Shown piece by piece: positions 18,590 through 61,218 of a DNA stretch of 64,000 bases. Below the pieces are notes generated by a model. It saw nothing but the letters and a program-made list of their open reading frames with translations. It was not told the DNA's origin and searched no databases. Every line of letters begins with the position of its first letter. Position 1 is the first letter of the stretch. The position numbers and the translations under genes are program-made. Source of the stretch: an uncultured Bacilli bacterium (GTDB lineage Bacteria; Bacillota_I; Bacilli_A; RF39; UBA660); NCBI GenBank assembly GCA_934098735.1, contig CAKOOS010000001.1, positions 157,541-221,540 of the forward strand, in the 5' to 3' direction.

Positions 18590-18674
18590 GCAGGCGTGGC
18601 GGAACTGGCAGACGCGCTAGACTTAGGATCTAGTGGATTAATCCGTGGGGGTTCAAGTCCCTTCGCCTGCACCA
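18590..18674 (+). tRNA. tRNA-Leu (anticodon UAG), class II with long variable arm
   Basis: GCAGGCG acceptor stem. Anticodon loop CUUAGGA. Long variable arm. GGTTCAAGTCC T-arm. Encoded CCA. Confidence 0.85.
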
Positions 18675-30500: not shown

Positions 30501-30570
30501 AAAATAATAGAAAATATAGTATATTCATAGTGTAATTTATTTGATTTAATTAGTAAAATTTAGGATTTTT

Positions 30571-30734: not shown

Positions 30735-30752
30735 TTGAAAGGAAGTTTAGAA

Positions 30753-42995: not shown

Positions 42996-43218
42996 AAGGT
43001 ATTGGCAAATATAATCTTATTTGTTATAATTAAGTTGCCTAGAAGGAATCTATGTCTATTTAAAACCGACTAGATATGATATACGGGAATCTAATTGAAT
43101 TATGGTGTAGAAGACTTATCCATTAAGTGAATAAGGATCCTAAAGTAGTTCATGTGATGCCCACCTCGCGAGAGCGGGTTTTTATCAAAGCAAGATTTCT
43201 TCTGGGTTTTATTATGGA

Positions 43219-43899
43219 GTGATTTTAATGTTTGAAAGGTTAGAAAGATTGGTTGGAAAAGAAGCAGTTGAAAAAATAAATCAAAAGAATATTTTATTAG
43301 TTGGAGTAGGTGGTGTCGGAGGTACAGTTTTAGAAGCTTTGGTTCGATCTGGTATTAAAAACATAACTATTGCAGATGGTGATGTTTTTGATGAATCAAA
43401 TTTGAATAGACAAATATTATCTACTCAGGAAGTAATTGGTCAAAAAAAGGTTGATGTGGCAAAAAAAAGAGTTCTTGATATTAATAGAGATGCTAATATT
43501 CAAACAATAGATTATAATTTAACTGAAGAAAGTATAAGTAACTTAGATAAAAATTATGATTTTATTATCGACGCTTGTGATGATGTTAAAGCTAAATTAA
43601 AATTAATGAAATTTGCAGAATTTAATAATATTTCCATAATTTGTTCAATGGGAACTGGAAAAAGACTAAATCCTAGTATGGTTAAAATTAGTACGTTAAA
43701 TAAAACTTATAATGATCCGCTTTCTAAAAAAATTAGATATGAAGCTAAAAAAATGGGTATTAATACTAATATACCCGTTGTATTTTCTGAAGAACTTCCT
43801 TACAATAGTGATAATGTTGTTGCTTCAAGTATATTTGTTCCTAGTTGTGCAGCTTTAAATATAGCTTATTATGTTATAAAAAAAATAATTAAACCTTGA
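43219..43899 (+). CDS. ThiF/MoeB/HesA-family E1-like protein (TcdA/YrvM-like tRNA t6A dehydratase)
   Basis: Rossmann motif VGVGGVGG and the DGDVFDESNLNRQ motif. Confidence 0.75.
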   Translation: MILMFERLERLVGKEAVEKINQKNILLVGVGGVGGTVLEALVRSGIKNITIADGDVFDESNLNRQILSTQEVIGQKKVDVAKKRVLDINRDANIQTIDYNLTEESISNLDKNYDFIIDACDDVKAKLKLMKFAEFNNISIICSMGTGKRLNPSMVKISTLNKTYNDPLSKKIRYEAKKMGINTNIPVVFSEELPYNSDNVVASSIFVPSCAALNIAYYVIKKIIKP

Positions 43900-43908
43900 T
43901 TGATTTAA

Positions 43909-44883
43909 TTATTTTTTTGTTATAAGGAAACTTACAAGGGTATTGGGATTTTCTCCATTATAAACAATGTTATAAATGATTGTTATGAGGTCTATTTGTA
44001 CATTTTTTCTATTTAAAATACGATATACGGTGTCTAAAGTGTAATATCCTTCAACAGTATTGTGAGCTAAATAATCATTTATTTTTTGAACATTATTAGT
44101 ACTTCCAATTACATAGCCAAAACTAAAGTTTCTACTTTTTGTGCTTGTACATGTTAACATTAAATCTCCAATGCCAGCGAATGATAAAACTGTTTTAGGC
44201 TTTCCACCAAAATAATAAATTATATCTTTGATATCATGCATAGCTTCATTTATTAAAAATGCTTGTGTTGAGTCATTATAACCTAATCCTTTTAATATAC
44301 CAGATGCAATAGCTATAATATTCTTAATAGCTCCACAAATTTGTATACCAATAATATCATTTGTTGGTCTTAATTTTAGGGTATTACTCGAAAGAGTTTT
44401 TAAAACTAAGTTACGAGCTTTTTTGCTTATAGATCCTAGAGCTAAAGCAACCGGTTCATTATTTAAAATATCTACTGCAAAGGTAGGTCCAGATATAACT
44501 GCAATATGTTTTGTTTTTAAGTTTTTTCTAACTATATCACTTAAAAAACACTCGCTTGTTTCTTCAATTCCTTTAGAAGCGATGCAAACAGGTGCATTTT
44601 TATGATAAAATGGTTTTATTTTTTGAACAACACTATCGACGTATTTACTTGCAGTTATGATATAAATTATTTGGGTATCTTTTAGGACTTCTTCCATGTT
44701 TGTACTTATTTTTATATTTTTAGAAAGTGTGGCATCTATTATTGAAGATACTTTCTTTGTTTTTTTGTATTCTTCATATTTTTCTTGACTTTCTGTCCAA
44801 ATACAAATTTTATTATCATTTTTTGCTAAGAGACTACTTATGGCTATACTATAAATTCCTAATCCAATAACACTTATTTTCAT
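43909..44883 (-). CDS. gpsA: NAD(P)H-dependent glycerol-3-phosphate dehydrogenase
   Basis: N-terminal Rossmann motif and ICGAIKNIIAIASGI (GALKNVIAIAAG-like). Confidence 0.75.
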   Translation of the reverse strand: MKISVIGLGIYSIAISSLLAKNDNKICIWTESQEKYEEYKKTKKVSSIIDATLSKNIKISTNMEEVLKDTQIIYIITASKYVDSVVQKIKPFYHKNAPVCIASKGIEETSECFLSDIVRKNLKTKHIAVISGPTFAVDILNNEPVALALGSISKKARNLVLKTLSSNTLKLRPTNDIIGIQICGAIKNIIAIASGILKGLGYNDSTQAFLINEAMHDIKDIIYYFGGKPKTVLSFAGIGDLMLTCTSTKSRNFSFGYVIGSTNNVQKINDYLAHNTVEGYYTLDTVYRILNRKNVQIDLITIIYNIVYNGENPNTLVSFLITKK

Positions 44884-46080
44884 TTAATTCTTCCTCATTT
44901 CTTCATGTAATTTATTTAAATTCATTTCTATTTTATTATTTTTAGGCTGATAATATTTTCTTCCTTGAAGCTGTTTTGGCATATATTCTTGTTTTACCCA
45001 ATCGTTTGGATAGTTGTGAGGATAAAGGTAATTTGGACTGGATGTTTTTATGTTATCAGGAACATTTCCAGTATTTCCTTTATGGATGTCATTAATTGCT
45101 GCATCTAAAGCTAAGTGAGAACTATTACTTTTTGGCGATAATGCCATTTCTACAACTATTTGTCCTAAAGGAATGCGAGCTTCCGGAAGTCCAACTAATT
45201 CCGCAGCACTAATCGCAGCCATTACACGAGGTCCAATTCCTGGGTTAGCCATGCCTATATCTTCATAAGCAATTACACTTAGACGTCTATATATACTATC
45301 TAAATCTTCAGCTTCAATAAGCCTTGCTAAATAATGTAAAGAAGCATCAACGTCGCTTCCTCTAATGGACTTTTGAAATGCACTTAGTACATCATAATGC
45401 CCATCTTCATTTTTATCATGAAAAAATACTGGTTTGCTATTTATTTTTTTGATATTTTCTATAGATATATTTCCGTCTGAAGTAGAGTAGTAGGCTACTT
45501 CTAATAAATTAAATGCATATCGCATGTCGCCACTTGCTAAAGAGGCAATATAGTTTAATGTTTCATCTTCTACTTTTATATTATCAAAATTTTTTAAACT
45601 TTTTTTAAGTCCTTTAAATATATCTTCTGAATTTAATTCATGAAGTTCAAAAATTTGACATCTACTTCGGATTGCTGGATTTATTTTATGATAGGGATTA
45701 GATGTTGTAAGTCCTATTAAAATTATAGTTCCATTTTCTATATATGGTAGTAATATGTCTTGTTTATCTTTATTCATTCTATGAATTTCATCAATGATTA
45801 AAACTAATTCTCCATAAAATTTAGCTTCTTCAATAGCAGAATCAAAATCACTTTTGTTATTTATTGTGGCATTCATAAACTTATAATGTAAATTAAGTTC
45901 TCCGACAATTGCAGTTGCTAAACTTGTTTTTCCTATTCCTGGTTTGCCATATAAAATCATTGAAAAAATTTTCTTGTTTTTAACAAGATTAGTAATTATT
46001 TTATCATCACCAATTAAATGTTCTTGACCAATAATATCATCTAATTTTTTTGGCCTTAATTTATCTGCTAAAATTTCCAT
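44884..46080 (-). CDS. rarA: replication-associated recombination protein RarA/MgsA (AAA ATPase)
   Basis: Walker A LYGKPGIGKTS, Walker B IIDEIHRMNK, MgsA C-terminal domain. Confidence 0.85.
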   Translation of the reverse strand: MEILADKLRPKKLDDIIGQEHLIGDDKIITNLVKNKKIFSMILYGKPGIGKTSLATAIVGELNLHYKFMNATINNKSDFDSAIEEAKFYGELVLIIDEIHRMNKDKQDILLPYIENGTIILIGLTTSNPYHKINPAIRSRCQIFELHELNSEDIFKGLKKSLKNFDNIKVEDETLNYIASLASGDMRYAFNLLEVAYYSTSDGNISIENIKKINSKPVFFHDKNEDGHYDVLSAFQKSIRGSDVDASLHYLARLIEAEDLDSIYRRLSVIAYEDIGMANPGIGPRVMAAISAAELVGLPEARIPLGQIVVEMALSPKSNSSHLALDAAINDIHKGNTGNVPDNIKTSSPNYLYPHNYPNDWVKQEYMPKQLQGRKYYQPKNNKIEMNLNKLHEEMRKN

Positions 46081-46150
46081 AATATCACGATATAATTATA
46101 GCACAATTGTTTTAAAAGCGATATAATGAATATAGAAATAGGTGAAACTA

Positions 46151-47047
46151 ATGAGAAATATTATTAATGAAGTAAATGATAAAGATGCAATTGATTTTTT
46201 AGAATATTTAAAATATGAAAGAAGAGTTTCTGCAAATACAATTGATTCTTATGGAGAAAATTTAAAATTATTAAATGATACTTTAAATAAACCTTTAATT
46301 ACTTTAAATTCGGATGATATACGAGAATTTCTTACAAATAGTACGGCGACACATAGAACTAAAGCTCATTATTTAACTGTATTTAATTCTTTTTATAAGT
46401 ATTTACTTTTTATGGAAAAAATAAATAAAAATCCTTGTGATGGAATTAAAAGTCCTAAAGTTGCTAAGAAGTTGCCTAATTATTTAACAACTGAAGAAAT
46501 TGATAAACTATTTGATATTCGGCTATATAAACCGTTAGATTATAGAAATAAGGCTATGTTAGAGTTATTATTTGCAACGGGAACAAGAATAAGTGAACTT
46601 ATAAATTTAAAACTTTATCAAATCGACTTTGAAGAATGCATAATAAGAGTTGAAGGAAAAGGAAAGAAAGAAAGAATAGTTCCTGTTGGAAATAGGGCGT
46701 TAAATGCCTTAAATGATTATATTAATATTTATAGACCTTTTTTATTGAAAAAAGAAAATACAGATTTTGTTTTTATAAATAAAGATGGTAAGCCAATAAG
46801 TAGACAAGGATTTTTCAAAATTTTAAAAAAAATAGCTAAAAATGCTGGTATAACAAAAGAAATATCTCCTCATGTTTTGCGACATTCTTTTGCAACACAT
46901 TTACTTAATAATGGGGCTGATCTAAGAGTAATACAAGAACTACTAGGACATGAAAATCTTGAAACTACTCAAATTTATTCTCATTTAAATAACAAAAAAA
47001 TAGAGGATGATTATAATAATCATCCCCATGCACATCTTGAAAACTAA
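46151..47047 (+). CDS. site-specific tyrosine recombinase, XerC/XerD family
   Basis: R...HxxR...Y catalytic pattern HVLRHSFATHLL...LLGHENLETTQIYSHL. AGGTGA RBS before ATG 46151. Confidence 0.8.
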   Translation: MRNIINEVNDKDAIDFLEYLKYERRVSANTIDSYGENLKLLNDTLNKPLITLNSDDIREFLTNSTATHRTKAHYLTVFNSFYKYLLFMEKINKNPCDGIKSPKVAKKLPNYLTTEEIDKLFDIRLYKPLDYRNKAMLELLFATGTRISELINLKLYQIDFEECIIRVEGKGKKERIVPVGNRALNALNDYINIYRPFLLKKENTDFVFINKDGKPISRQGFFKILKKIAKNAGITKEISPHVLRHSFATHLLNNGADLRVIQELLGHENLETTQIYSHLNNKKIEDDYNNHPHAHLEN

Positions 47048-47164
47048 TTAGTCACAGTTTTCAGTACGAGCATTGTTACGTGCTTTAGAATTATTTCTTG
47101 CACTATTAGAAGATTTAGCATTATTTCTTGCTTTGCTTCTAGCGTTTTCTCTAGCTTTGCTCAT
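47048..47164 (-). CDS. unannotated 38-aa basic repetitive small protein (MSKARENARSKARNNAKSSNSARNNSKARNNARTENCD)
   Basis: GGAGGT RBS 11 nt upstream of ATG (rc of 47162-47164). Three A-R-N-N-[AS]-[KR]-[AST] repeats. Convergent with the recombinase gene. Confidence 0.4.
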   Translation of the reverse strand: MSKARENARSKARNNAKSSNSARNNSKARNNARTENCD

Positions 47165-47248
47165 TATTTAATTTACCTCCCATTATTATTATGTATAAGT
47201 TTAATTCTTTTAGTCATATATTTAATGGAAATATAAGGAAGTGAAATT

Positions 47249-47878
47249 ATGAAAATTATCGGAATTACAACGCGTATTTTAACTAATGAAATAGACCAGA
47301 AAATTGAAAAAGTTCCTCATTCACTTATAAATAAAATTACTAATTGTGGTGCTATACCTATAATTATTCCATTTACAGATAAAGAAAAATTAATAGAAAT
47401 AGTGAATCTTTGCGATGGTTTTGTTATTCCTGGAGGGAATACTTGGCATGTTTTGGATGAAATAATTATTAATTATGCTATTAAAAATGATAAACCTCTT
47501 CTTGGAATTTGTGCTGGAATGCAAGCTCTAGGAAATATTCATAATTTTTGTGGAACTAATGATAGTGATCAAAGTGTTTTAATTAATAGCAAAATAAATC
47601 ATTATGATAGTAAGCATGAATATGTTCATGATGTAAATATTACTGGTTCACTTATGAAAAAAATATTGCATAAAGATAGTATTCAAGTTAATAGTAGACA
47701 TCATTATAAAATAGAAAAATATCCGTATTATAATGTGGAAGCTTTAAGTTCAGATGGAATAATTGAAGCTATAAGTTTTCCAAACAAAAAGTTTATTTTA
47801 GGTGTTCAGTGGCATCCAGAAGATTTAAATGATGAAAATAGTGAAAGACTTTTTGAATATTTTATTAATAGTTTATAA
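47249..47878 (+). CDS. class I glutamine amidotransferase-like (peptidase C26 / gamma-glutamyl hydrolase family)
   Basis: Catalytic-Cys motif LLGICAGMQAL and GVQWHPE. Confidence 0.75.
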   Translation: MKIIGITTRILTNEIDQKIEKVPHSLINKITNCGAIPIIIPFTDKEKLIEIVNLCDGFVIPGGNTWHVLDEIIINYAIKNDKPLLGICAGMQALGNIHNFCGTNDSDQSVLINSKINHYDSKHEYVHDVNITGSLMKKILHKDSIQVNSRHHYKIEKYPYYNVEALSSDGIIEAISFPNKKFILGVQWHPEDLNDENSERLFEYFINSL

Positions 47879-48285
47879 TAATTATATCTAAAAAAAATTA
47901 TCCATGGTAAATCTTGGATAGTTTTAATTGTTATTTTCTATTAGCAGTTTTTTTCAATTTTGTCATCATCTTTGGCTTTATTTCTTTTTTTTAATATTTT
48001 AATAAATTCTTCTTTATAGTTTCGATTGCTTAATTCTCTTATATTGTCATTATATATAGCATCACCGTTATTATTTACTAAATCATTAAAATTTTTGTAT
48101 TTGTATGTATTTTTAACTTTTGTTTTTAAATATTCCTTGTTATCACTTAGTTTTTCAAAGATAATTATAACATTAAAATGAGATTTTTAAATAATTTAAA
48201 TTAAAAATGGAGAAGGGGAGAATATTAATATTTTGATAATAATATTATTTAGAAAAAATTTTCATATAAATTAATAAGGTGATTT

Positions 48286-49038
48286 ATGAAAACATTTATT
48301 CCTTTTTTAATATCTACAATTGCAGGTCTTTCAACAATTATTGGGGCTTTATTAATTTTTTTAAAAATCAAAGAAGAAAGATTAAACAAATTTATTAGTT
48401 TTTGTTTAGCTTTTTCGGTAGCAATAATGATAGGAATTAGTGTATTTGATTTAATTCCTACATCTTTTTTTAAAGTTATAAGTTTATATGGTTTTACTAA
48501 AACAAGTTTGCTTTTAATAGTTTCATTTTTATTAAGTTATATAATAATTACAATTCTTATTACTTTAATTAATAAAGATGAAAAAAAAGAAGAATTATAT
48601 CAATTAGGAATTTTGAATATGGTTGTATTGATGCTTCATAATTTGCCAGAAGGTGTTGCAACTTTTTTGAGTAGTTATCATGATATTAATTTAGGAATAA
48701 AACTTAGTATTGCTATTATGCTACATAATATACCAGAGGGTATTGCTATAGCTGTTCCAATATATTATTCAACCCATAGTAAGAAAAAAGCTTTTAATGC
48801 AACAATTATATCTGGACTTTCTGAACCCTTGGGAGCTTTACTTGCTTATTTATTTTTAAAGGACTTTGTAAATGACTTTATTATTAGTATTATTTTAATT
48901 ATTGTAGCAGGCCTTATGATTACATTATCTATTCAAGAGATGTATCCAAAGGCTTTAAAATACCATGAGAAAAGAAGCTTAAAATTGGGATTGTTATTGG
49001 GTTTTATATTAGTCATTTTAAATATTTTCCTTAGTTAA
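48286..49038 (+). CDS. ZIP family metal transporter (second copy in window)
   Basis: HNLPEGVATF and HNIPEGIAIAVP motifs. Polytopic membrane protein. Confidence 0.8.
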   Translation: MKTFIPFLISTIAGLSTIIGALLIFLKIKEERLNKFISFCLAFSVAIMIGISVFDLIPTSFFKVISLYGFTKTSLLLIVSFLLSYIIITILITLINKDEKKEELYQLGILNMVVLMLHNLPEGVATFLSSYHDINLGIKLSIAIMLHNIPEGIAIAVPIYYSTHSKKKAFNATIISGLSEPLGALLAYLFLKDFVNDFIISIILIIVAGLMITLSIQEMYPKALKYHEKRSLKLGLLLGFILVILNIFLS

Positions 49039-49539
49039 ATATAGATAGAGTAGGGATAATAATAAATATTTAAATATTACTTAATTATTAAGAATTATAG
49101 CTTTTTGCAACTTGAAATAAATTCTAAAAAAAAGAATTATTTATTAAACATGTAGTTAAAATTGGTTATTTGGACGTCCTTAGACGTTCAAGTTTTCTTA
49201 TATTACGGTATTTAGATGACCATAATAACCAATATTATTTGCATAATTAAGTTAACATAATATATATTATTTTAAGAATATAATTAATTAATTTTTGGGT
49301 TTTTTAGGTTGTTTTAAAATTAATTTATTATAAGTTTTTTTATCATGCTATTGTACTTTATTTGAAAATTTTAAGAATTTGTATTGATATGAATTACGAA
49401 TTCAATTTATAAATTTATGTTTATATAAATTTAAATTAAAAAATTGTTTTAAATTTAATATTCATGCATCTGTGCTTATAACCTTATTATTATATATAAA
49501 TAAGGTTATATATATATGTAATAACTTTTTGCAAAAGGT

Positions 49540-49583
49540 AAAAAAACTCCCTACTACTTTAAAAAAATTAAGTAGGGGGAGTG
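49540..49583 (-). terminator. rho-independent terminator for the minus-strand operon ending at 49584
   Basis: CTCCCTACT...AGTAGGGGGAG inverted repeat with a T-run on the minus strand. Confidence 0.5.
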
Positions 49584-50537
49584 TTAGTTAATTTTTCTAA
49601 ATATAATTGTTAAAATAGATGCTAAGATAATATCTATTAGTATCTTACTAATTAGTAAATTAATATTTAAAAGATTATAAAGGACATAAATAAAGAAGCT
49701 TGCTAAAACTAATCTAAATATTTTTCTTAATATTAGCTTTAAGTTGTTTTTTATTAAATTGTTTTTATATATCATTTGATAGTTCATAATTATATGTAAC
49801 ACTATCCCTACTACTTCAGATATAGTGTTTGCTATGATAATTCCTTTTAAATCATTAATATCGTTGCGTAAATAAAATATTATTATAAATAATATTAAAG
49901 AAATTAAATAAGGAATAACGGCTTTTAAAACAAAAGGAATTAGACTTTTTAGGTAGGGGATAACTCTTTTGCTACTTTCCCCCACTCTTTTTTCATTTTT
50001 TCGCCAAACTGTCTTTATATTTGTTTCTTTTATTTTAATATTTTGAGACAAAGCTGTAATTAAATAATTACTACTATTTTCTTGAATACTTTTTTCTAAT
50101 TCATTAAACAAATTAGCATTTATTACTTTTAATTCTGGTAATACACTTTTAAAATTAGTGTTAAATAAATTGTTAAATAAAGTATTTACTAAAACTTCAT
50201 TTATAGATACGTTTTCATTTGTACCTAATATTATTTTTTGAGGATTTTTATTTGACTCTTCGCAACATTTTATAATGTCATCGCATACTACATCCACAAT
50301 ATTATCAATAAATACCAGTGTTTGAATATCAGATTTACTATCTAAATAACTGTTTATTTTTGCTAAAGCTGTTTTTTCATTTCCATCAATAATAGAAAAA
50401 TTAGTATCTAAAGCATCTTTACTTTTATTAAATATTATAATATTTTCAAAATAAAGATTTAATTCCTTTAAAGTTTTTTGAAAACGATTAAAATCTCCTT
50501 GATACCAATTTGCAATAATTAAAATACCTTTATTCAT
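49584..50537 (-). CDS. hypothetical protein: ~195-aa cytoplasmic N-terminal domain plus C-terminal 3-4 TM helices
   Basis: Hydrophobic C-terminal third. No catalytic motif recognised. Confidence 0.45.
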   Translation of the reverse strand: MNKGILIIANWYQGDFNRFQKTLKELNLYFENIIIFNKSKDALDTNFSIIDGNEKTALAKINSYLDSKSDIQTLVFIDNIVDVVCDDIIKCCEESNKNPQKIILGTNENVSINEVLVNTLFNNLFNTNFKSVLPELKVINANLFNELEKSIQENSSNYLITALSQNIKIKETNIKTVWRKNEKRVGESSKRVIPYLKSLIPFVLKAVIPYLISLILFIIIFYLRNDINDLKGIIIANTISEVVGIVLHIIMNYQMIYKNNLIKNNLKLILRKIFRLVLASFFIYVLYNLLNINLLISKILIDIILASILTIIFRKIN

Positions 50538-50606
50538 TTAATACACCTTTTCCATTTTAACACTTTTTAAAAAAATATACTAGTTTATTTATAGTATATT
50601 TTTATT

Positions 50607-51389
50607 CTATATCGGTTCACTTTTAGTCCAATAATAGTTTTTACCATCTTTCTTAAATGTATGCTTATAAAGAGTTCCATATTTCTTTAAATATTTATAG
50701 TCTATTTTATTGTCTTTTTCGTAAGCTTTACTACATTTTTCGTTTTTGGTATCATCAATATAATTTTCATAGCATTCATTATTTACTATTTTTAAAAAAT
50801 GATCATAAATAATAATTTCATCTTTATTTTTAATGGCCTTTTCTATTGATCTATAAGTATGTGGTTCAGCTCCGACAGTATAGGTATATGTTTCAGCTAG
50901 ACCACAATAATAGTTGCCATCATAATAATAACAAATTGTAGTATCATCATATTGAAATTTTGCATAATCTGCTATTTTTTCACCATACATTTTTTCATAT
51001 TGCTTGTTTACTTTTTCTGCATCTACCTTAGTAATTGTACAAATATCATCTTCGTAATTATCTGTTGCAAATTTAAAATCATCACTTACACTACAGATGT
51101 TATTTTTCTTTGTTTTATCAATTTTCATTGTTGTTAATTCATCTTCATTTAACAAACTATAAGCAATACATATTTTATTTTCAATAGATAAATCTTTATA
51201 AGATACTGATTTAGAATCATAATTTACTAAACCGTTACATACCTGTAAATCATTATTTCCTAAATAGCTATATATTTCTTGTACTAAATTACTTTCTGTA
51301 TTTAAATTTCTTTGTTTTATAAATATGATAATAATAATTAATAAAATAATTGCTATTATAGATATAATTACATTTTTTTTGTTTTTCAT
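50607..51389 (-). CDS. hypothetical TM-anchored extracytoplasmic Cys-rich protein
   Basis: N-terminal TM (IISIIAIILLIIIIIF) followed by a domain with ~10 Cys. The ATG lies 3 nt after the stop of the upstream regulator gene. Confidence 0.45.
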   Translation of the reverse strand: MKNKKNVIISIIAIILLIIIIIFIKQRNLNTESNLVQEIYSYLGNNDLQVCNGLVNYDSKSVSYKDLSIENKICIAYSLLNEDELTTMKIDKTKKNNICSVSDDFKFATDNYEDDICTITKVDAEKVNKQYEKMYGEKIADYAKFQYDDTTICYYYDGNYYCGLAETYTYTVGAEPHTYRSIEKAIKNKDEIIIYDHFLKIVNNECYENYIDDTKNEKCSKAYEKDNKIDYKYLKKYGTLYKHTFKKDGKNYYWTKSEPI

Positions 51390-51391
51390 AA

Positions 51392-52162
51392 TTATACCTT
51401 TCTTGTTTGAATTTCAGCCATTTTTTCAAATACTTCAGCAGCATTTTCAGGATTTATATCATTATATCCTAGTTCTCTTAAAGCTTGAATCTTTACAGTA
51501 CTTAATTGTTGAGTTCTTGTAAGCTTTTCTTCATTTTTTTGTTCAATTTCTTGAATGAATCTTTTATGACTTTCTGCTAATCTGCTTTTACTAGCTCCAC
51601 CATTATTATATAGGGTTAAAGCAGTATATAATATTCCTTCAAATATAAATTGTTTTTCTTCATCAAAAGCATATTCATCAGGTTTAATAAAACCATTTGA
51701 TTTTGCCATATAACCCATTATATATTTAATTTCAGGTATATTATCCATTGATTGTAACATGAAATACATATACTTTATTGCAGCGCTAGCAGTATTATCA
51801 CCATCTTCTAATTTTTCTTTAAGTAAAAATATAAAATCATTTAACAAAGTTTTATTTTCTTTGGTTAAACCATTAAAATCTATTATTGAATCCATATTGT
51901 TTGATGATTTAATGGCGTTATTTAATCTTTTTTCTACTCCCATTAAATATTCAGTGTCGACCTTTATATTTTGAATACTTTCATTACTACCATCTTTAAT
52001 GTCTAAAAGTTGAAGTAATAAAACTTTTTTTTCTTTTGGCCACTTATCTAAACTATCTAGTACAAGATAGTTGTATACCATTTGACGAGATACCCCTAAA
52101 TATTTAGCAAGTTTTACTTTAGATAAGCCTAATTCTTGTAATAATTCATTTAATCTATCCAT
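51392..52162 (-). CDS. XRE-family HTH transcriptional regulator with ~190-aa C-terminal domain of unknown function
   Basis: N-terminal HTH LSKVKLAKYLGVSRQMVYNY. C-terminal helical domain unassigned. Confidence 0.6.
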   Translation of the reverse strand: MDRLNELLQELGLSKVKLAKYLGVSRQMVYNYLVLDSLDKWPKEKKVLLLQLLDIKDGSNESIQNIKVDTEYLMGVEKRLNNAIKSSNNMDSIIDFNGLTKENKTLLNDFIFLLKEKLEDGDNTASAAIKYMYFMLQSMDNIPEIKYIMGYMAKSNGFIKPDEYAFDEEKQFIFEGILYTALTLYNNGGASKSRLAESHKRFIQEIEQKNEEKLTRTQQLSTVKIQALRELGYNDINPENAAEVFEKMAEIQTRKV

Positions 52163-52222
52163 ACATTCACTACCTTTTTTATTTACACTTCAATTATACA
52201 TAACTTAACACTTAAAATCAAG

Positions 52223-53359
52223 TTAGTTTTGTAAATACCATAAAAATTCATTATCATTTTTAACTTTATCTATAAAGCCACAGCCAAGACATTCTTCTCC
52301 TAGATATAAAACACAAGCTTGTCCTGGTGTAACGGCCTTAACTTTTTCTTGAAATTTAACTCTAACTTTATTATTTTCTAAATATTCTAATTCAACAGGA
52401 TGATCTTTATCTCGATAACGAAATTTAGCTGTACAAAAAGTTGGCCTTAAACTAGATATAAAGTTACAATTATCAATTATACATTCATCACTAAGTAAAT
52501 ATTTATTATCTTCACCAAAGGCTACATATAAAATATTTTTTTCAACATTTTTTCCACAAACGTAATGTCTTTTAGAATTTCCAGATATTCCGACATTTCT
52601 TCTTTGACCTATTGTATAATTCATTAATCCAGTATGTCTTCCAATTACTTTTTTAGTGTCAACATCAACAATATCACCAGGATTTGGTTTTAGATAATTT
52701 TCAATGAATTTTTGGTAATTTCTTTCACCGATAAAACAAATACCAGTTGAATCTTTCTTATGAGCAACATTAAGATCATTTTCTTCAGCAATTTTTCTTA
52801 TTTCAGGTTTAGTATAGTCTCCGACTGGAAATAAAACATTTGCAAATTGTTCTTTTTTAACATCAGCTAAAAAGTATGTTTGATCTTTATTTAAATCGAC
52901 ACTTCTTTTTAGTTTTCCATCTTCCAATTTAGCATAGTGACCTGTTGCTACAAAATCTGCTCCAAGCTTTTTGGCTTCTTTTATAAATAAATCAAATTTG
53001 ATAAATTTATTACACAATAAATCTGGATTAGGTGTTCTACCTTTTTTTAATTCTTCTAAAAAATAAGTAAAAACATAATCCCAGTATTCCTTTATAAAAT
53101 CAATACGATGAAGCTTTATTCCTAATTTATTACATAAATTTACTGCATCGTTATAATCTTTTTCTTGAGGACATATATCAGTAAAATCATTTGGATTACC
53201 AAGATAATCACCATTTATATTACTATCCCAGTTTCTCATAAATAATCCTTCAACTTCATATCCTGCATTTTTTAAAAGTAATGCAGCAACAGCAGAATCT
53301 ACTCCACCTGATATTCCAACTATAACTTTTTCCATAAACATCACATACTTAGTATACAT
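52223..53359 (-). CDS. mnmA: tRNA-specific 2-thiouridylase MnmA
   Basis: PP-loop VIVGISGGVDSAVAA and catalytic Cys residues. The start overlaps the upstream stop (TAATG). Confidence 0.85.
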   Translation of the reverse strand: MYTKYVMFMEKVIVGISGGVDSAVAALLLKNAGYEVEGLFMRNWDSNINGDYLGNPNDFTDICPQEKDYNDAVNLCNKLGIKLHRIDFIKEYWDYVFTYFLEELKKGRTPNPDLLCNKFIKFDLFIKEAKKLGADFVATGHYAKLEDGKLKRSVDLNKDQTYFLADVKKEQFANVLFPVGDYTKPEIRKIAEENDLNVAHKKDSTGICFIGERNYQKFIENYLKPNPGDIVDVDTKKVIGRHTGLMNYTIGQRRNVGISGNSKRHYVCGKNVEKNILYVAFGEDNKYLLSDECIIDNCNFISSLRPTFCTAKFRYRDKDHPVELEYLENNKVRVKFQEKVKAVTPGQACVLYLGEECLGCGFIDKVKNDNEFLWYLQN

Positions 53360-53928
53360 TAATTTATTAGAAAATTAAAGATATTAATTATTTTAGCCCC
53401 AGTAAAATATAAAATTACGTCAAAAATAACTATTAAAGCTATAAATATTAGTGCTTTTTTAAATAACAGTATAATTGTTTCTTTATTACTCTTTTTATAA
53501 ATAAAGTAATCAATTATACTTTTAACAATTTTAAATAAAGTTACTAAGAAAAACATTAGTAATATTATAAATATTAATTTGCTAATTATTACATAAATAA
53601 CACCATATAATAAACCCTTTATACCAAATATTATAGTTAAAGAACTAATAATAAATCCTATACTAAATCCATTATAAAATATAAAAAATATATCTAATGG
53701 TGCGCCAATTACAAAAATACTTAAAATAAATAAACTAGCTAAACTTATAAAATGAAGTAATATATTATTAAGTTTTATATTACTTTGTATCATTTCATTA
53801 ATGTTCAAAAAAAGTATTTCTTTTGTAGACTCATCTAATGTTACAACAAATACTATACCAACAACTACACCAATGAATAATAATATACTCATAAATATAT
53901 ACAATCTTTTATTAATGCTTGTCCACAT
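53359..53928 (-). CDS. polytopic membrane protein, SpoIIM/DUF95-like (tentative)
   Basis: Five predicted TM helices at SpoIIM-family size. Translationally coupled to mnmA. Confidence 0.35.
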   Translation of the reverse strand: MWTSINKRLYIFMSILLFIGVVVGIVFVVTLDESTKEILFLNINEMIQSNIKLNNILLHFISLASLFILSIFVIGAPLDIFFIFYNGFSIGFIISSLTIIFGIKGLLYGVIYVIISKLIFIILLMFFLVTLFKIVKSIIDYFIYKKSNKETIILLFKKALIFIALIVIFDVILYFTGAKIINIFNFLIN

Positions 53929-54135
53929 AATATCACCAATTAATTATATTGCAAATTAAATTTTTTTATGATAAATTATTGTTATGATATTTAGAAAAGC
54001 GGTGATAATGTGAATAAAAAAGCTCAAAAAATTATGGTTTGGGTTATGCTAATTGCAATGGTAGCTAGTGTTGTCGTAGGAATTCTTGCTTATATATTAT
54101 AAAAGATAAAAATAACGTAGAAGAAATTCTACGTT

Positions 54136-54891
54136 TTAATATGGAAATAAAAATGATATTAAATTGCTAAATTTATCTATATGAAAATACACAATAAATA
54201 AAGCTCCGACTAGAAATGGTCCATAAGGGAATTCATGCCTATTTTTTAAATGCAAACTTGCAAAAGCATAAGGAAGAGCTAAGAAACTTGAAAGAACTAA
54301 GGCAACTAATGCTAACTTTATATCAAGACATAAACCAATTATAAAACATAGTTTTATATCACCTCCACCTAATGATTCCTTTTTCAAAATAAATGATCCA
54401 ATTTCTTCAATTAAAAGCATAATAAGAAACATTGATATGCCTGATAAAATACTAAAAATACCAGTTTTAAATCCACTATATATTATTTTTATTATTATGA
54501 TTAAAACACCAGATATAATTAGAGATGAATCTAATATTATCATATATTTAAAATCACTTACGAAGATAATAACCATTAATGAAACAATAATGAGAGATAT
54601 TAAAAATTCTTCACCAAAAGGAAAATATAAATAAGATAATAAAAATAAAAACCCTGTGATTAATTCTACCCAAAAATGTTCACTATTTATTTTACTTTTA
54701 CAATTAGAACATTTACCTTTTTGGATTATATACGAAATTAAAGGAATTAAATTATACCACTTTAATTCCTTTTTACATGTATCACATCTGCTTCGAGAAA
54801 ATATAATATCTTCGTTTAATGGAAGTCTTGTTCCTACTACTAAATAAAATGAACCTAAAATTGTTCCTAATATAAACATAAATATTGCCAT
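54136..54891 (-). CDS. type IV prepilin peptidase (A24 family, PilD/ComC-like)
   Basis: N-terminal zinc-binding CxxC...CxxC (CDTCKKELKWYNLIPLISYIIQKGKCSNCKS). Polytopic membrane region with conserved Asp residues. Confidence 0.8.
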   Translation of the reverse strand: MAIFMFILGTILGSFYLVVGTRLPLNEDIIFSRSRCDTCKKELKWYNLIPLISYIIQKGKCSNCKSKINSEHFWVELITGFLFLLSYLYFPFGEEFLISLIIVSLMVIIFVSDFKYMIILDSSLIISGVLIIIIKIIYSGFKTGIFSILSGISMFLIMLLIEEIGSFILKKESLGGGDIKLCFIIGLCLDIKLALVALVLSSFLALPYAFASLHLKNRHEFPYGPFLVGALFIVYFHIDKFSNLISFLFPY

Positions 54892-54898
54892 ACTTCAC

Positions 54899-56464
54899 CT
54901 ATCCATTTTGTATTTGGGCGTACATATCAAACATTGGTACTATAACAGCTATAATAATTGCACCTACAACAAGAGCTAAAATAGATATCATAATAGGTTC
55001 TATAAATGATTTTAAACTATTGATAATATTTTTATGTAATAGTTGATAATATTCACTAACCTTTTGCATCATGTTTGCTAAATCTCCAGTTGATTCGCCA
55101 GTGACAATCATATAATATGCAACATCAGGTACTGCCCAATGATCCTTAAATGCTTCACTAATTTTTTCCCCTTTTACTATATTATTAATTGTTTTATATA
55201 AAATTGCTTTGTAAATTTCGTTATTTGTTATTCGGCTTAAGATATCCATACTATCAGTAATAAATACATTATTTCTTAATAATGAAGCAAATGTCTTAGA
55301 AAATATTGTAAGTTCATTATAAATGATAACATTTTTAACTATTGGTAAATGCATAAGAAAAATTTGCATACTTGTTCTAAACGCTTTGACGGTTTTATAG
55401 AGAACAACAATTATTAAAATTATTAAGATTATTACTAATAAAAATGTTAACCAGTTATTTTTCAAAAAAGTACTTATATCAATAACAAGTTTTGTCATAC
55501 CTGTTATTTTTGTACCATTTGCATCGTAAATTTCTATAAATTTTGGAACTACATATAGCAAAATAAAAGTTATTACGCCAATTGAAAAAACAGTTATTAT
55601 AGCTGGGTAAGTCATGGCACTTACCATTTGTTTATGAGTTTCATTTATTTCCGTATAATATGCAGCCATATCATCAAGAGTCTCAACTAAAGTACCACTA
55701 GCTTCAGCTGCTTTAATCATATTTACAAGCAATGCAGGAAACATATTTCCTTGTTTTTCTAAAGCTTTAGAAAATGATTCTCCTAAAGTTAGTTCATAAG
55801 AAATAGCTTTAAATGCCGTAGTTCGAGATTTATTTCCTTTCATTTGAGTTGTAAGAATTTTTATTGATTCATTTAATGTAAGACCTGCCTTAATATAAGT
55901 TGATAACTGAGTTAACCAAAATATAAGATCTTTTGTTGACATCTTTTTTCCAAAAAAACTTGTATCTTTATACAATAAATCAATCATTGGAGAGGTTTTT
56001 ATAGAGTAAACAATATATCCTTCATTTAATAAATAAGAATTTATATCTAATTTACTTAAACCATTCATAGTACCAGTTATTATTTTCCCAGTTGTATCTT
56101 TTACTTTATAATAATATACATGTGGTTCTTTAGTTCGTGTTGCCCCAGAAGTTTGTAAATCAATAAGAAGCATTTTTCTTTCTTCTTCTAATTTAGCTAG
56201 TAATTTGGGACTGTATTTATAAACTTTTTCTTTTTTTGGCTTTTTCTTTGTTCTTTCATATATTTTTTCTTCATCTGCCATGAAGGCCTGCTTAGTTGCT
56301 TCATAAGTTCTGCTTACACGATAACTTGTTCCATTGTATAAGTCAGCCCAAAAATCAAACCCTAAAAACTTTATTCCAACTAAAGCATAGGTAACTATAT
56401 TATAGAGAATAACAAATGGACTTTTTAATATGTCTATGAATTTTTTGGAATTAGTTGCTTCCAT
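54899..56464 (-). CDS. type II secretion system F-family platform protein (PilC/GspF-like)
   Basis: Two T2SSF-domain repeats, each with 3 TM segments. Extended N-terminus, so the true start may be internal. Confidence 0.75.
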   Translation of the reverse strand: MEATNSKKFIDILKSPFVILYNIVTYALVGIKFLGFDFWADLYNGTSYRVSRTYEATKQAFMADEEKIYERTKKKPKKEKVYKYSPKLLAKLEEERKMLLIDLQTSGATRTKEPHVYYYKVKDTTGKIITGTMNGLSKLDINSYLLNEGYIVYSIKTSPMIDLLYKDTSFFGKKMSTKDLIFWLTQLSTYIKAGLTLNESIKILTTQMKGNKSRTTAFKAISYELTLGESFSKALEKQGNMFPALLVNMIKAAEASGTLVETLDDMAAYYTEINETHKQMVSAMTYPAIITVFSIGVITFILLYVVPKFIEIYDANGTKITGMTKLVIDISTFLKNNWLTFLLVIILIILIIVVLYKTVKAFRTSMQIFLMHLPIVKNVIIYNELTIFSKTFASLLRNNVFITDSMDILSRITNNEIYKAILYKTINNIVKGEKISEAFKDHWAVPDVAYYMIVTGESTGDLANMMQKVSEYYQLLHKNIINSLKSFIEPIMISILALVVGAIIIAVIVPMFDMYAQIQNG

Positions 56465-56562
56465 AATAACCCATCCTTTACTCTATTTAAGTATATCAAA
56501 TAAATCTTTTTAATACAATCAATAATTTTTATTTTTTTCATATAATTATATAGGTGGTTATA

Positions 56563-56835
56563 ATGTTTGGCTCAAATATAACTGGCAGCTCTTTAAGCCT
56601 TTCTAAAATTTTAAGTGGTATTTCTAAAGCTTTAAATATAGCTAATCAGGCCATACCTATTTATAAAGAGATTAAACCAATTGCTCAGAATGCTCGAAAG
56701 ATTATGGGTGTATTAAAAGAATTTAATTCAAGTAGTGATTCTAAGCCTCAAAAAAATATAAAAGAAAATAAAAGCATAGAAAAAAAAGAAGTAAAAATGA
56801 TTTCTACTTCTTCTAAGCCAGTTTTTTTTCAATAA
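56563..56835 (+). CDS. hypothetical 90-aa protein divergent from pilC
   Basis: AGGTGG RBS before ATG 56563. The 3-prime end overlaps the trmK stop region. Could be spurious. Confidence 0.3.
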   Translation: MFGSNITGSSLSLSKILSGISKALNIANQAIPIYKEIKPIAQNARKIMGVLKEFNSSSDSKPQKNIKENKSIEKKEVKMISTSSKPVFFQ

Positions 56836-57418
56836 CATTAATATATTTTAGATACTTTAAATTCTTTGATTTACTAAATAATATTTTGTATTTATTTAAT
56901 AAATAATTTAAGTATTCTAAATTATTACTTTTTCCTAGTAGTATATCTTCTTCAGTTAAATTTTCTTTTCCTTTGGTATATTTTATAATGTCATAATAAA
57001 TCTCTTTTTCTTTTACAATTATTTCTTTTTCAACTTTATAACCAATACTATTTATAAATATTCTTAAGTCTGGTATGTTATTATGACTACATACAATTAT
57101 TTTTTTAGGTAAATTTTTTACACTAAGAATTTTTTTTATTGTTGATGATCCCATTCCTGTAATTATAGCAATATCATATTTTCCTGATAAATTTTTAAAT
57201 CCATCACTTTCTATTAATTCTATCTTATCTTCTAAATTATTTTTAATTAAATTCTTAGCACTATATTTTAGTACTTCTTTAGATATATCACTTGCTGTTA
57301 TAAACTTAGTTATATTATTTTGATATAAATATATTGGTAAATAAGCATGATCTGTTCCAATATCTACTACTTTAGAATTTGCATCTACTAAAGATGCAAT
57401 AGCTTGTATTCTTTTCAT
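56813..57418 (-). CDS. trmK: tRNA (adenine22-N1)-methyltransferase TrmK (YqfN-like)
   Basis: SAM motif VVDIGTDHAYLPIYL. Position directly downstream of sigA, as in B. subtilis. Confidence 0.75.
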   Translation of the reverse strand: MKRIQAIASLVDANSKVVDIGTDHAYLPIYLYQNNITKFITASDISKEVLKYSAKNLIKNNLEDKIELIESDGFKNLSGKYDIAIITGMGSSTIKKILSVKNLPKKIIVCSHNNIPDLRIFINSIGYKVEKEIIVKEKEIYYDIIKYTKGKENLTEEDILLGKSNNLEYLNYLLNKYKILFSKSKNLKYLKYINVIEKKLA

Positions 57419-58524
57419 TATTCTTCTAAGAAGTCTTTAAGCTTTTTAGCACGAGATGGATGACGAAGTTTTCGTAAAGCTTTGGCTTCAATTTGTCTTA
57501 TTCTTTCTCTGGTTACATTAAACTTTTTACCAACTTCTTCAAGAGTATGACATGTTCCATCAATCAAACCAAAACGTAATTCTAAAACTTCTTGTTCACG
57601 AGCTTGAAGAGACATTAATACTTCCTTTATTTCTTCTTTTAAAATCTCATTTTCTGTATATTCTTCAGGTGATAAACTTGATTCATCTTTAAGAAAATCC
57701 CCTAAATGTGAATCTTCTTCTTCACCAATCGGAGTTTCAAGAGATACTGGTTCTTGGCTTATTTTCATTACTTCTCTTACCTTTTCTACTCCTACTCCCA
57801 TTTTCTTGGCAATTTCTTCTTCGCTAGGTTCACGATTTAATTCTAGAGTAAGTTGTCTTTGAACTCTAGACATTTTATTAATTGTTTCAACCATGTGAAC
57901 TGGAACACGAATTGTTCTTGCTTGATCAGCTAAAGCTCTAGTTATAGCTTGTCTAATCCACCATGTTGCATAAGTTGAAAATTTATATCCTTTATCGTAG
58001 TCAAATTTTTCAACTGCTTTCATTAATCCAATGTTTCCTTCTTGAATTAAATCTAAAAATAGTAGCCCACGTCCAACATATCTCTTAGCAATAGAAACTA
58101 CTAAACGTAAATTAGATTCTGCTAAGATTCTTTTTGCTTCAGGATCATCGTCTGCAACCCTTTTAGATATTTCCATTTCTTCTTCACTTGAAAGTAGTGA
58201 AATTCTTCCTATTTCTTTTAAATACATTCTAACTGGATCATTGATATTTATATCTTTTGTAATATCTTCATCACTAAGTATAACTGTTTCTTCTTCTAAT
58301 TTTTCTTTTATTTTTGCTTCCCCGGTTGATTCATCAATATCAGCTTCTGCCACAACAGAAATACTATTATCTACAAGTTTATTATATAGATTATCTAAAG
58401 CATCATTGTCAATATCTAATCCTTTTAATTCTAAGGCTAATTCTTCATAGGTTATAAAGCCTTTTTCTTTTCCTTTTTGTATTAAAGTATTTTCTCTTTC
58501 TTCTAATGTTTTAATTTGTTCCAT
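57418..58524 (-). CDS. sigA: RNA polymerase primary sigma factor
   Basis: Regions 1.2 to 4.2, including the [20 protein letters not shown] region and the region 4 HTH. Confidence 0.9.
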
Positions 58525-58527
58525 TAT

Positions 58528-60261
58528 TCACACTTCCTTTTTAATTTCTGTCAACTTTTCCATCAACGCTATTTTCTTATTTATATCCATTTCCATTTTA
58601 ATTTTAGCTTTAAGATTCGTAATTTCTTCCTGCTTATAAATTTTTAATATCGCTTCTAGACATGAATTAAACTCATCATCGCTAATGACAGTATTTCCAT
58701 TTTCACTCATAATTATTTGCAAAAATGCAAGCACTTCTTCATTATTTCTTACAAATGTCAAAAAATCAGCAATATCGATATTTCCATGTACACTTTCATA
58801 ATATACTATTTCACTAGCTAAAATTCTCTCTATTTTTTCTTTAAAATATCCCAAGCGTTTTTTGTAAATTGCAATGTATTTATTACTAAAAAGCATATAG
58901 TATAATACTTTATGACTTGCCTTTTGATATTTTGTAACTTTATCTTGGCTACTTAAATTCATTTTTCTTTGGGGAGAAACATTATCTCTTTTTAAGCCAG
59001 ATTTTAAAGTTTCTATATCAACGGCATAATCTTTGCTTATTTTAGATATAACTAAGTCTTTTGTCAAGTCATCTTGATCATTTAAACTATTTATTACTTC
59101 TTTTACATAAATTATTAAATCTTCTAGATTATTAAGATTCTTGTTTTGTTTTAAGTATTCTATCTTAAAATCAATGTATTTTATAGCATGATCAATATTA
59201 TCTTGCATAGCTTTAATACCATTTGCTTCAATATATTCATCAGGATCTTTTTCTCCGCTTAATCTAACTACTTTAACTATTACACCAGCACTTTGAAGTA
59301 TTTCACCATTTTTAACCGTAGCTTCAAGACCAGCATTATCATTATCAAGCATCAATATGACAGGCATCTTCAATTTTTTTAAAATTTCAACATGTTCTTT
59401 AGATAAAGCTACTCCCATCAAGGCTACGACATTTTTAATTCCTTTAGCACTTAATTTTATAGCATCCATATTTCCTTCGACAACTATAACACTTTTAGCA
59501 TCTCTAATGTATTTTTTGGCATTATGATAATTAAATAAGATACTTCCTTTTTTAAATATTTCTGTTTCTTTCGTATTTAAGTACTTAGCTGTATTGTTTT
59601 CGCCATTAAATATTCTTCCAGTAAATCCTACCACTGATCCTTTTACATCTTCAATTGGGATTACTATTCTATTTATAAATGTATCATATATGTTAGCTCC
59701 CACTTTGTTTATTAAACCTAATTTATCTAAAATTTCAATATTCCATTTTTTATTTTGACATAATTTAAAAAATGTATCAGGACTGTTATTGGCAAGCCCT
59801 ATATTAAATTCTTTAATTATATCTTCTGTAATGCCTCTTTTTCTTAGATATTCGCGAGCTTTTATACCATCATCTGTAAACATATTATTTAAGTAGTATT
59901 TTGTGGCAAAATCATATATTTGATAATCTTCATCATATTTACTTTTTTCTATATTAACAAAATTATTAATATTTAAATTATACCCAATTTTGTTAGCTAC
60001 AATTTTTAAGGCTTCAGGAAAACTAACATTTTCATATTTCATTACAAATGTAAATACATTACCACCAGTTCGGCATGTAAAACAATTAAATATTTGTCTT
60101 TCTCTAGAAATTACTAATGAAGGAGAATGATCATCGTGAAATGGACATACTGCAACAAAATTTTTTCCTTTAGAAGTAACATTTAAATAACTAGAAACAA
60201 TGTCAACAATGTCAGCACGGCTTCTTATTTCGTTTATTTCTTCGTCTTTAATATACGCCAT
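58528..60261 (-). CDS. dnaG: DNA primase
   Basis: Zinc ribbon CPFHDDHSPS, TOPRIM domain, C-terminal DnaB-binding region. GAGGGGA RBS before ATG (rc of 60259-60261); the track start 60297 is likely an upstream extension. Confidence 0.9.
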   Translation of the reverse strand: MAYIKDEEINEIRSRADIVDIVSSYLNVTSKGKNFVAVCPFHDDHSPSLVISRERQIFNCFTCRTGGNVFTFVMKYENVSFPEALKIVANKIGYNLNINNFVNIEKSKYDEDYQIYDFATKYYLNNMFTDDGIKAREYLRKRGITEDIIKEFNIGLANNSPDTFFKLCQNKKWNIEILDKLGLINKVGANIYDTFINRIVIPIEDVKGSVVGFTGRIFNGENNTAKYLNTKETEIFKKGSILFNYHNAKKYIRDAKSVIVVEGNMDAIKLSAKGIKNVVALMGVALSKEHVEILKKLKMPVILMLDNDNAGLEATVKNGEILQSAGVIVKVVRLSGEKDPDEYIEANGIKAMQDNIDHAIKYIDFKIEYLKQNKNLNNLEDLIIYVKEVINSLNDQDDLTKDLVISKISKDYAVDIETLKSGLKRDNVSPQRKMNLSSQDKVTKYQKASHKVLYYMLFSNKYIAIYKKRLGYFKEKIERILASEIVYYESVHGNIDIADFLTFVRNNEEVLAFLQIIMSENGNTVISDDEFNSCLEAILKIYKQEEITNLKAKIKMEMDINKKIALMEKLTEIKKEV

Positions 60262-60355
60262 AATCTTCCCCTCAAAATGATAAATCAGTTGTCCCAAAAA
60301 TCGAAGTTATTATACCACTTTTTTAATCAATTTGCAAACAAAAAAAGTCTATATT

Positions 60356-61216
60356 TTACATTTTAAGACTTTTTTTGATAAAGATATTATTTAATAGTGC
60401 ATAAATCAAGCTAAATATTGTTACACTTATAATCATTCCCGTATAAAAGCTTATATATTTGGTTAAGAAAAAACCTACTGTAGAAGTAATTAGACCGTAT
60501 ATTATCCTATTTTTTTTAAGTAGTGGACTAGTACTGTTCCAAGGCATTATTATAATTAAAGCAAATATAGCATTTCCATTATATAAAAAATTTAAATCAT
60601 GAAAAAGGATTGCTAAAACCACATATATAATAAGGCCACTTACACTAATGCTAGTTTTATAACAAGTTTTTATTGATAATAATATAGTTAAAATAATGCC
60701 ATAAATAATTAATGTTGATCCTAGTCCTCCAATATTTCTTCCAAATAATAAATCTAGCGAGTTAAAAGCATAAATATTTAAACTTTCAGCTGGGTTTAAA
60801 AAACTTAAATGAGAAAATAAATGTAAAACTAATGTTATGAAGGAAATAGTTAGGGCTATATTAGGTAAATCTATATTTTTAAGGCTTAAATAAATTATGC
60901 TTCCTATTATAATTGCTATTATATACAGAATAAAATTTATACTATATGGCATGAAAAGTGGAATAATAAATAAAGACAATAAATAGAAATCTATTTGCAT
61001 TTTTTTTCTAAATACTTTGCAACATAAAAAATAAGCTATTATTCCTATTAAAGCTAAAAAAGGAAGCTTAAAAATACTTATAAAATTAATTAAATTTTTT
61101 GTATATAATAATACTCCATTTTTATAAATACCATATAGATATAAAGGAATTAAGGCTAAAATGTAAATTATAACATTTTCTTTAATTTCTTTTTTAGCAT
61201 GCATATAGACATTCAT
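60356..61216 (-). CDS. polytopic membrane protein, RnfD/NqrB-like (tentative)
   Basis: About 8 TM helices. GGLGSTL segment reminiscent of the RnfD YGGLG region and NSTSPLL reminiscent of the S-x-A-T-P-L flavin-site loop. 2-nt gap to the upstream RnfC-like gene. Confidence 0.35.
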   Translation of the reverse strand: MNVYMHAKKEIKENVIIYILALIPLYLYGIYKNGVLLYTKNLINFISIFKLPFLALIGIIAYFLCCKVFRKKMQIDFYLLSLFIIPLFMPYSINFILYIIAIIIGSIIYLSLKNIDLPNIALTISFITLVLHLFSHLSFLNPAESLNIYAFNSLDLLFGRNIGGLGSTLIIYGIILTILLSIKTCYKTSISVSGLIIYVVLAILFHDLNFLYNGNAIFALIIIMPWNSTSPLLKKNRIIYGLITSTVGFFLTKYISFYTGMIISVTIFSLIYALLNNIFIKKSLKM

Positions 61217-61218
61217 TT

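Follow-up and report, generated by a model that had tools for sequence, protein, structure and literature searches.

An AT-rich spacer with a dif-like site as the probable replication terminus of uncultured gut Bacilli

The stretch of DNA considered here, 64,000 nt long and called the window below, comes from a member of the class Bacilli, an uncultured gut bacterium of low GC content (window GC ~26%; 26.1%). Its longest gap free of open reading frames (ORFs), a 545-nt spacer at 49039–49583, is very probably, judging from its sequence, the terminus of chromosome replication and the location of a dif site. The element is of a known kind; what is new is its placement in this uncultured lineage. 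On the minus strand, mnmA (52223–53359) is followed by three ORFs, termed genes A, B and C, and gene C converges on the spacer with a plus-strand ZIP/ZupT transporter gene (48286–49038). An earlier description of this region from the sequence alone (the sequence-only reading) had placed the three minus-strand genes between mnmA and the ZIP transporter, at coordinates that are confirmed, and was right that the AT-rich 545-bp stretch is the longest non-coding one in the window, but it overlooked the dif-like site at 49250–49277 and the convergence of the flanking genes, and took the block for a sensor/regulator module or an accessory island.

The candidate dif occupies 28 bp on the minus strand (49250–49277) and reads TCTTAAAATAA-TATATA-TTATGTTAACT, in an 11-6-11 layout of XerC arm (49267–49277), centre (49261–49266) and XerD arm (49250–49260). 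The published criteria for dif sites, namely similarity, position at the skew switch and single copy (PMC1914069; PMC3025954), were applied to it. Compared with the Bacillus subtilis dif, ACTTCCTAGAATATATATTATGTAAACT (PMC3025954), the site is identical at 6/6 positions of the centre and 10/11 of the XerD arm (16/17 together); it lies at the switch in skew, and a Xer gene that fits it is encoded nearby. The 19-nt dif core is non-coding and occurs once in the window, against 0.06 copies expected. The 28-mer is the most conserved element of the spacer, forming a perfectly conserved block when the window spacer is aligned with its counterparts from two other species, whose gene C is only ~53% identical.

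The site recurs across a large group of relatives. An alignment of gene A, scanned against species-representative genomes, matched at least 579 of them; the best 80 loci were retained, all from genome bins of uncultured gut Bacilli or "Tenericutes", including Clostridium sp. CAG:609 and Candidatus Onthocola. Among 83 non-redundant related loci that were fetched, a position-weight scan located a dif-like site in 67, nearly every locus with enough sequence, with place and orientation unchanged. Between the end of gene A and the site lie 32 to 4689 nt (66 loci, one site each, single orientation). The order mnmA-A-B-(X)-C-dif-ZIP-Xer-RarA is retained in other species. More distant relatives carry ACTTCGCATAA-TATATA-TTATGTTAACT, and since the relatives form a graded series from the canonical ACTTCGCATAA arm, the XerC arm of the window is best seen as the degenerate end of that series. 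A search of metagenome contigs with the 23-nt dif core matched 27, each with a single copy (27/27), and 21/27 share the gene context; the exact 28-mer had zero matches in JGI metagenome contigs. Counts of 7-mers around dif in the related loci returned A/T-rich words only and no shared motif.

Strand asymmetries place the switch between replication arms at the spacer. GC skew is +0.27 over 1–43000, +0.09 over 43001–49250 and −0.21 over 49251–64000, and the cumulative G−C count reaches its maximum as a plateau at 49386–50095, 110–820 nt from the dif site. To the left of the spacer 42/48 ORFs lie on the plus strand; to the right 13/14 lie on the minus strand. The skew of related loci turns from positive to negative at the dif-like site in 38/52 (means +0.19 left, −0.08 right). 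At 18.3% GC the spacer falls below both the window (26.1%) and the remaining gaps (mean 24.4%). The two replication arms would meet within this AT-rich spacer, genes A, B and C would be the last genes of one arm, and transcription arriving from either side would stop there. At the ZIP end, a terminator-like hairpin with a T-run (49168–49203, plus strand; the hairpin itself 49168–49193) contains GGACGTCC and is the sole match to the terminator pattern in 48000–53500. At the other end, the hairpin ACTCCCCCTACTT..AGTAGTAGGGAGT followed by T7 (49540–49583, minus strand), directly 3' of gene C, is the predicted intrinsic terminator of that gene (the sequence-only reading had noted a strong terminator in this stretch); its stem, CCCCTAC/TAGGGG, recurs in relatives whatever gene lies upstream. 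A Zur box considered near the ZIP gene matched no better than chance.

The XerC/D-family tyrosine recombinase gene that the sequence-only reading had pointed out nearby is indeed there (46142–47047, plus strand; Pfam Phage_integrase, E = 6e-57), 2.2 kb from dif, but it appears to be the chromosomal Xer that goes with the site and not the integrase of an island. It exceeds the cut-off of the PRK00283 tyrosine-recombinase model and scores 318 bits with the NCBIfam XerD model, 299 bits with XerC and 109 bits with XerS; in 47 loci a Xer gene lies 1.1–6.5 kb beyond dif and is oriented toward it. The product of 46142–47047 is probably the enzyme for this dif, so that at least one Xer subunit would be encoded 2.2 kb from the site. 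By analogy with established Xer/dif systems, the recombinase would bind both dif arms and exchange strands across the central TATATA after replication, and the reaction at 49250–49277 would turn chromosome dimers into monomers.

The features shared with the chromosomal dif/XerCD systems of B. subtilis (with CodV/RipX) and Escherichia coli are the 28-bp 11-6-11 site with its TATATA centre, the XerD arm at 10/11, the non-coding position at the GC-skew switch and the presence of a XerC/D-type recombinase in the genome. The lineage departs from them in three respects: the XerC arm of the window's subclade is degenerate (TCTTAAAATAA versus ACTTCCTAGAA), recombinase gene and site are linked (1.1–6.5 kb) across the lineage, and a conserved palindrome module lies 144–231 nt from the XerC side. 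Linkage of gene and site recalls XerS/difSL of streptococci and XerH/difH of epsilonproteobacteria, in which a single recombinase is encoded next to its own site (PMC1914069). However, the window enzyme scores as XerD/XerC, its site is a classical 28-mer and not the 31-bp difSL, and, unlike in both of these systems, a ZIP gene separates the site from the recombinase gene.

Mobile elements appear to use the site in some relatives. Filamentous phages that exploit Xer recombination integrate in tandem between dif-like sites. At one locus (L039, 9767–19116), three dif-like sites, spaced 4661 nt from one another, delimit a 4.66-kb element arranged in tandem. It encodes a secreted protein of 339 aa and a coat-like protein of 63 aa besides a Rep_OBD protein and a Zot-like ATPase, and has the look of a filamentous phage that entered dif through Xer recombination. 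A second dif-like site stands 4.5–4.8 kb from the first in L032 (11257/15781) and L043 (12479/17267). Separately, on an unrelated metagenome contig (L135:4940–5871) the 23-nt dif core adjoins a distant Xer-like gene (32% identity), in what looks like a tight xer-dif module of another organism.

Beyond dif, the spacer holds a second conserved element, the palindrome TATAACCTTAT-N12-ATAAGGTTATA (49477–49510), which is unique in the window (0 expected by chance) and takes the general form TATAACCTTAT-N10-12-ATAAGGTTATA among relatives. The exact pattern has one match per locus in 17 fetched loci. With a looser pattern, the stretch from the last gene to dif contains a CCTTAT-N-ATAAGG palindrome, single or doubled, in 43/68 dif-carrying loci (related loci plus the window), often with ACGCGT between the copies and preceded by the CCCCTAC/TAGGGG hairpin. 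The module is present irrespective of the upstream gene, and the end of the palindrome lies 144–231 nt from the XerC side of dif in 61/62 loci, while the DNA between the two is not conserved. The inverted repeats listed in the sequence-only reading do exist, with different fates: ATAACCTTA..TAAGGTTAT is unique in the window and conserved, GGACGTCC belongs to the ZIP terminator, and TGAATTACGAATTCA, considered as an ARG-box-like site ~110 nt from dif, is not conserved in relatives and was dropped. A/T-tract phasing from palindrome to dif gave no helical signal (z below 2), and a scan of viral contigs for the palindrome returned 42 scattered matches, a number that chance could produce with an AT-rich 18-mer. 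In clades without gene B the palindrome is missing and a different conserved element takes its place; the recognition helix of gene A is invariant in both groups of clades, which argues against gene A binding the palindrome. The element of the clades without gene B and palindrome, ..ATCGAGAAATAAAAAGATGGGTAATTATGCATCTCGAT.., forms a hairpin and is conserved between gene A and dif in L044 (~11.55–11.62 kb), L084, L036, L032 and L039; no Rfam family matches it at the gathering threshold.

Gene A (51392–52162, minus strand; 256 aa) encodes an XRE-type helix-turn-helix (HTH) domain at about residues 1–55, of the Cro/C1 type with five helices, followed by an all-helical C-terminal domain (AlphaFold model; predicted local distance difference test score, pLDDT, 79). 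Foldseek found no match to the model below E = 0.4, profile searches of PDB and Pfam gave no family for the C-terminal domain, and Pfam, NCBIfam, PHROGs and PADLOC returned only weak HTH matches for the protein. Matches to the phage sliding-clamp-binding families phrog_3664 (E = 0.04) and PF25696 (E = 0.04) were judged to be noise. Identity to gene A is 89% in the next species and falls to 65% at the margin of the 80 loci; about 30 species in the 83-locus set have gene A without a detectable B, and most have it without C, and where B and C are absent gene A directly adjoins dif. Directly after mnmA stands its σ70-like promoter, TTGATT-17-TATAAT (52193–52221, minus strand). It is highly conserved, and not in its −35 and −10 boxes only: its spacer element AAGTGTTAAGT (52203–52213, minus strand) is nearly invariant in ~80 species, as is TGTAAA just past the −10 box (~80 species; L002–L087). 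AAGTGTTAAGT is likely the operator of gene A, and the protein would be a widely conserved DNA-binding protein that probably represses itself through it.

Gene B (50607–51389, minus strand; 260 aa) encodes an N-terminal membrane anchor and an extracytoplasmic domain, as the sequence-only reading had recognized, although the cysteines number 8 rather than about ten. Each of them is invariant across 31 homologues, and the protein is predicted to be surface-exposed and probably disulfide-bonded; searches of Pfam, NCBIfam, PHROGs, PADLOC and PDB gave zero matches. The genes are packed less uniformly than had been described: A and B are separated by only 2 nt, but B and C by 69 nt (50538–50606, minus strand), where an AT-only hairpin and T-run are followed by an extended −10 element, AGTGTTAAAAT, and the ribosome-binding site of gene C. 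The layout TTGACA..GTGATAAAAT upstream of gene C is also found in relatives. This gap, with its hairpin and separate promoter, makes A-B and C the likely transcription units and not a single operon. AAGTGTTAA, a candidate gene A operator before gene C, was rejected, being the extended −10 of C's own promoter, as in relatives.

Gene C (49584–50537, minus strand; 317 aa) encodes a membrane protein, as the sequence-only reading had proposed, with a GT-A-fold domain and a four-helix C-terminal membrane domain of the GtrA/DPMS type. Pfam, NCBIfam, PHROGs and PADLOC had nothing for it, no member of its family reaches the Pfam GT2 threshold, and PDB profile searches with the three proteins gave no match. 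Its AlphaFold2 model (pLDDT 76), compared with PDB by Foldseek, matches DPMS (5mlz), ArnC and GtrB at E values of 1e-6 to 3e-4 (5mlz, 9bhe, 9nyf, 5eke). A related species without gene C encodes a canonical GT2+GtrA_DPMS_TM fusion with intact NDGS and DCD motifs (L045:4335–5390, plus strand), and hhalign aligns the gene C family with this protein over its full length (99.2% probability, E = 4e-19, 308 columns). Relative to it, NDGS has become NKSK, DCD has become DNI and D.Q.G.R has become S.L.E.K, losses that run through the whole family; N37-K aligns with the N-D of the template, and the DxD position reads D78-N-I, or N/S-N-L in distant members, so that the Asp after strand 2 and the DxD motif are both missing. 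The most conserved part of the protein is the last pair of membrane helices.

In its sequence, then, gene C is a degenerate paralogue of the polyprenyl-phosphate glycosyltransferases (Pyrococcus DPMS 5mlz, GtrB, ArnC and the GT2 + GtrA_DPMS_TM fusions). The homology is full-length and takes in the GT-A fold as well as the four membrane helices at the C-terminus; unlike these enzymes, gene C lacks NDGS, DxD and D.Q.G.R and is probably not catalytic. The motif losses point to a membrane protein derived from a glycosyltransferase that loads sugars on polyprenyl phosphate, in which the residues that bind nucleotide-sugar and metal, and with them probably catalysis, have been lost; it would now probably have a non-enzymatic role in the membrane, binding a lipid carrier or acting as a scaffold. 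The roles suggested for genes A, B and C are each tentative, short of an even chance and much less certain than the terminus and dif. B and C are additions present in part of the lineage only and placed between gene A and dif. Some relatives have further genes there: one for a membrane-anchored, Asn/Lys-rich surface protein of 486–604 aa between B and C (L002:9663–11123; L007:1041–2855), and one between C and dif that ends in a PAP2 motif (..RIYLGVHYFSDI.GG), a motif identified by eye only; this gene ends upstream of dif in L009, L011, L014, L018, L025, L027 and L053.

Several observations weigh against placing dif and the terminus in the spacer. The XerC arm matches the B. subtilis site at only 6/11 positions, and AATAA, beside the centre, is the only part of this arm conserved in the window's subclade. 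In 14/52 loci the negative skew is missing on the right of the site, with values near zero or weakly positive. A single Xer gene is seen, no second one having been found in the window, and the copy number of dif (one in 64 kb, one per partial contig) covers less than a whole genome. A dif at the terminus also leaves the conserved palindrome module beside it unaccounted for. There is a slim chance that dif is here part of a larger terminus module, in which the hairpin, the palindromes, the linked recombinase gene and gene A contribute to an accessory complex controlling Xer recombination. Such a complex could make up for the degeneracy of the XerC arm or restrict integration by filamentous phages, and would correspond, on a chromosome, to the accessory systems of cer and psi. 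In the plasmid Xer sites cer and psi, DNA bound by accessory proteins is adjacent to the XerC side of the core; the likeness to these systems lies in conserved DNA resembling a protein site at a constrained distance from the XerC side. In contrast to cer and psi, the site here is chromosomal, the conserved DNA lies 144–231 nt away rather than directly adjacent, and there is neither a conserved ARG-box or ArcA-type site nor helical phasing of A-tracts.

Other explanations of the spacer fare worse than a terminus with dif. It is quite unlikely that the spacer encodes a small or structured RNA whose hairpins are the conserved elements: a minus-strand transcript of 49440–49600 does fold into two strong hairpins (z = −2.5), both kept in relatives, but Rfam matches to the window spacer are at chance level, a tsr31 match being simply the terminator, and 7 relatives have none at the gathering threshold; the sequence from palindrome to dif is not conserved, and dif accounts for the 28-mer. 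At the variable position of the palindrome stem, compensated pairs occur no more often than A·A and T·T mismatches, and such frequent uncompensated mismatches favour two protein half-sites over an RNA stem. That the 28-mer is a promoter or operator and not a recombination site is extremely improbable. The plus strand does offer a weak promoter-like match (TTAACA-16-AAGAAT, 9/12), yet the flanking genes converge, so that no gene lies downstream of the 28-mer on either strand; its conserved part is exactly the XerD arm plus centre, relatives carry a full canonical dif, and phage-like elements have integrated at the site in L039. Nor can the spacer be the promoter of the ZIP gene, a possibility raised together with the sequence-only reading, because it is flanked by convergent genes and the ZIP gene ends there.

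The two proposals made for the gene block are likewise weakened by its distribution. That gene A, as an RNPP/Rgg- or Xre-type regulator, responds to a signal by controlling a surface system made up of B and C is unlikely. It would fit the XRE-type HTH followed by a long helical domain, the near contiguity of A and B (2 nt), the extracytoplasmic B and the envelope-type membrane protein C, and RNPP/Rgg regulators (PlcR, PrgX, Rgg2) share with gene A both the N-terminal XRE-type HTH plus helical domain and occurrence in Firmicutes. The HTH and the helical C-terminal domain noted in the sequence-only reading thus stand, but not the RNPP/Rgg likeness: profile and fold searches beyond the HTH gave no TPR/RNPP match, no peptide gene is adjacent (the spacer ORFs of at least 20 aa all overlap the terminator hairpins and the dif site), and gene A, unlike those regulators, is single-copy at a fixed chromosomal position. 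Gene C has its own promoter, and species whose gene A is ~89% identical share only 53–59% identity in B and C (window against the next species: A 89%, MnmA 87%, RarA 78%, Xer 70%, ZIP 69%, B 59%, C 53%). In the many species without B and C, gene A persists with an invariant recognition helix and a nearly unchanged promoter, so it is not their dedicated regulator. Horizontal acquisition of 49039–52222 as an accessory or mobile island, perhaps through the nearby recombinase or by Xer integration at dif, is very unlikely. The variable presence of B, X, C and the PAP2 gene between A and dif, the fast evolution of B and C, and the capture of mobile elements by dif in relatives (L039, L032, L043) speak for it, but gene order is kept across species on both sides, the GC content and skew of the block fit its neighbourhood, no second dif-like site or direct repeats flank it, it contains no mobility genes, no homologue of gene A was found in phages or plasmids, and an identical gene C protein occurs on 41 contigs. 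Genes A, B and C appear instead to be lineage-specific genes held at the same position in many related species, neither a pheromone sensor nor a mobile island; the block is conserved in related species but has no assigned housekeeping function, nor any other assigned function, in keeping with the sequence-only reading.

The terminus and its dif locate the end of replication and dimer resolution in a large group of gut Bacilli for which metagenomes are the only source. Together with gene A as a marker (at least 579 species genomes), they could help to orient and finish assemblies, and the location of dif could help to find Xer-exploiting prophages such as the Rep/Zot element in L039. A false lead, a quorum-sensing module or island, is removed, and three uncharacterized families are flagged: an HTH protein with a new domain beside dif (80 related species), an 8-cysteine surface protein and a glycosyltransferase-derived membrane protein without catalytic motifs. 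The palindrome module at its constrained distance from dif is left over.

Elsewhere in the window are a T-box leader (30537–30717, 5' of a 585-aa ORF at 30735–32492), a 6S RNA gene (43033–43212) and two tRNA genes (18506–18671). Upstream of mnmA (53359–56464) lie genes for a SpoIIM-like membrane protein, a prepilin peptidase (A24) and a GspF/T2SSF-type platform protein; CAG:609-like species (L002–L004) have different genes upstream of the SpoIIM-like gene and mnmA, encoding trigger factor, GreA and U32 peptidases.

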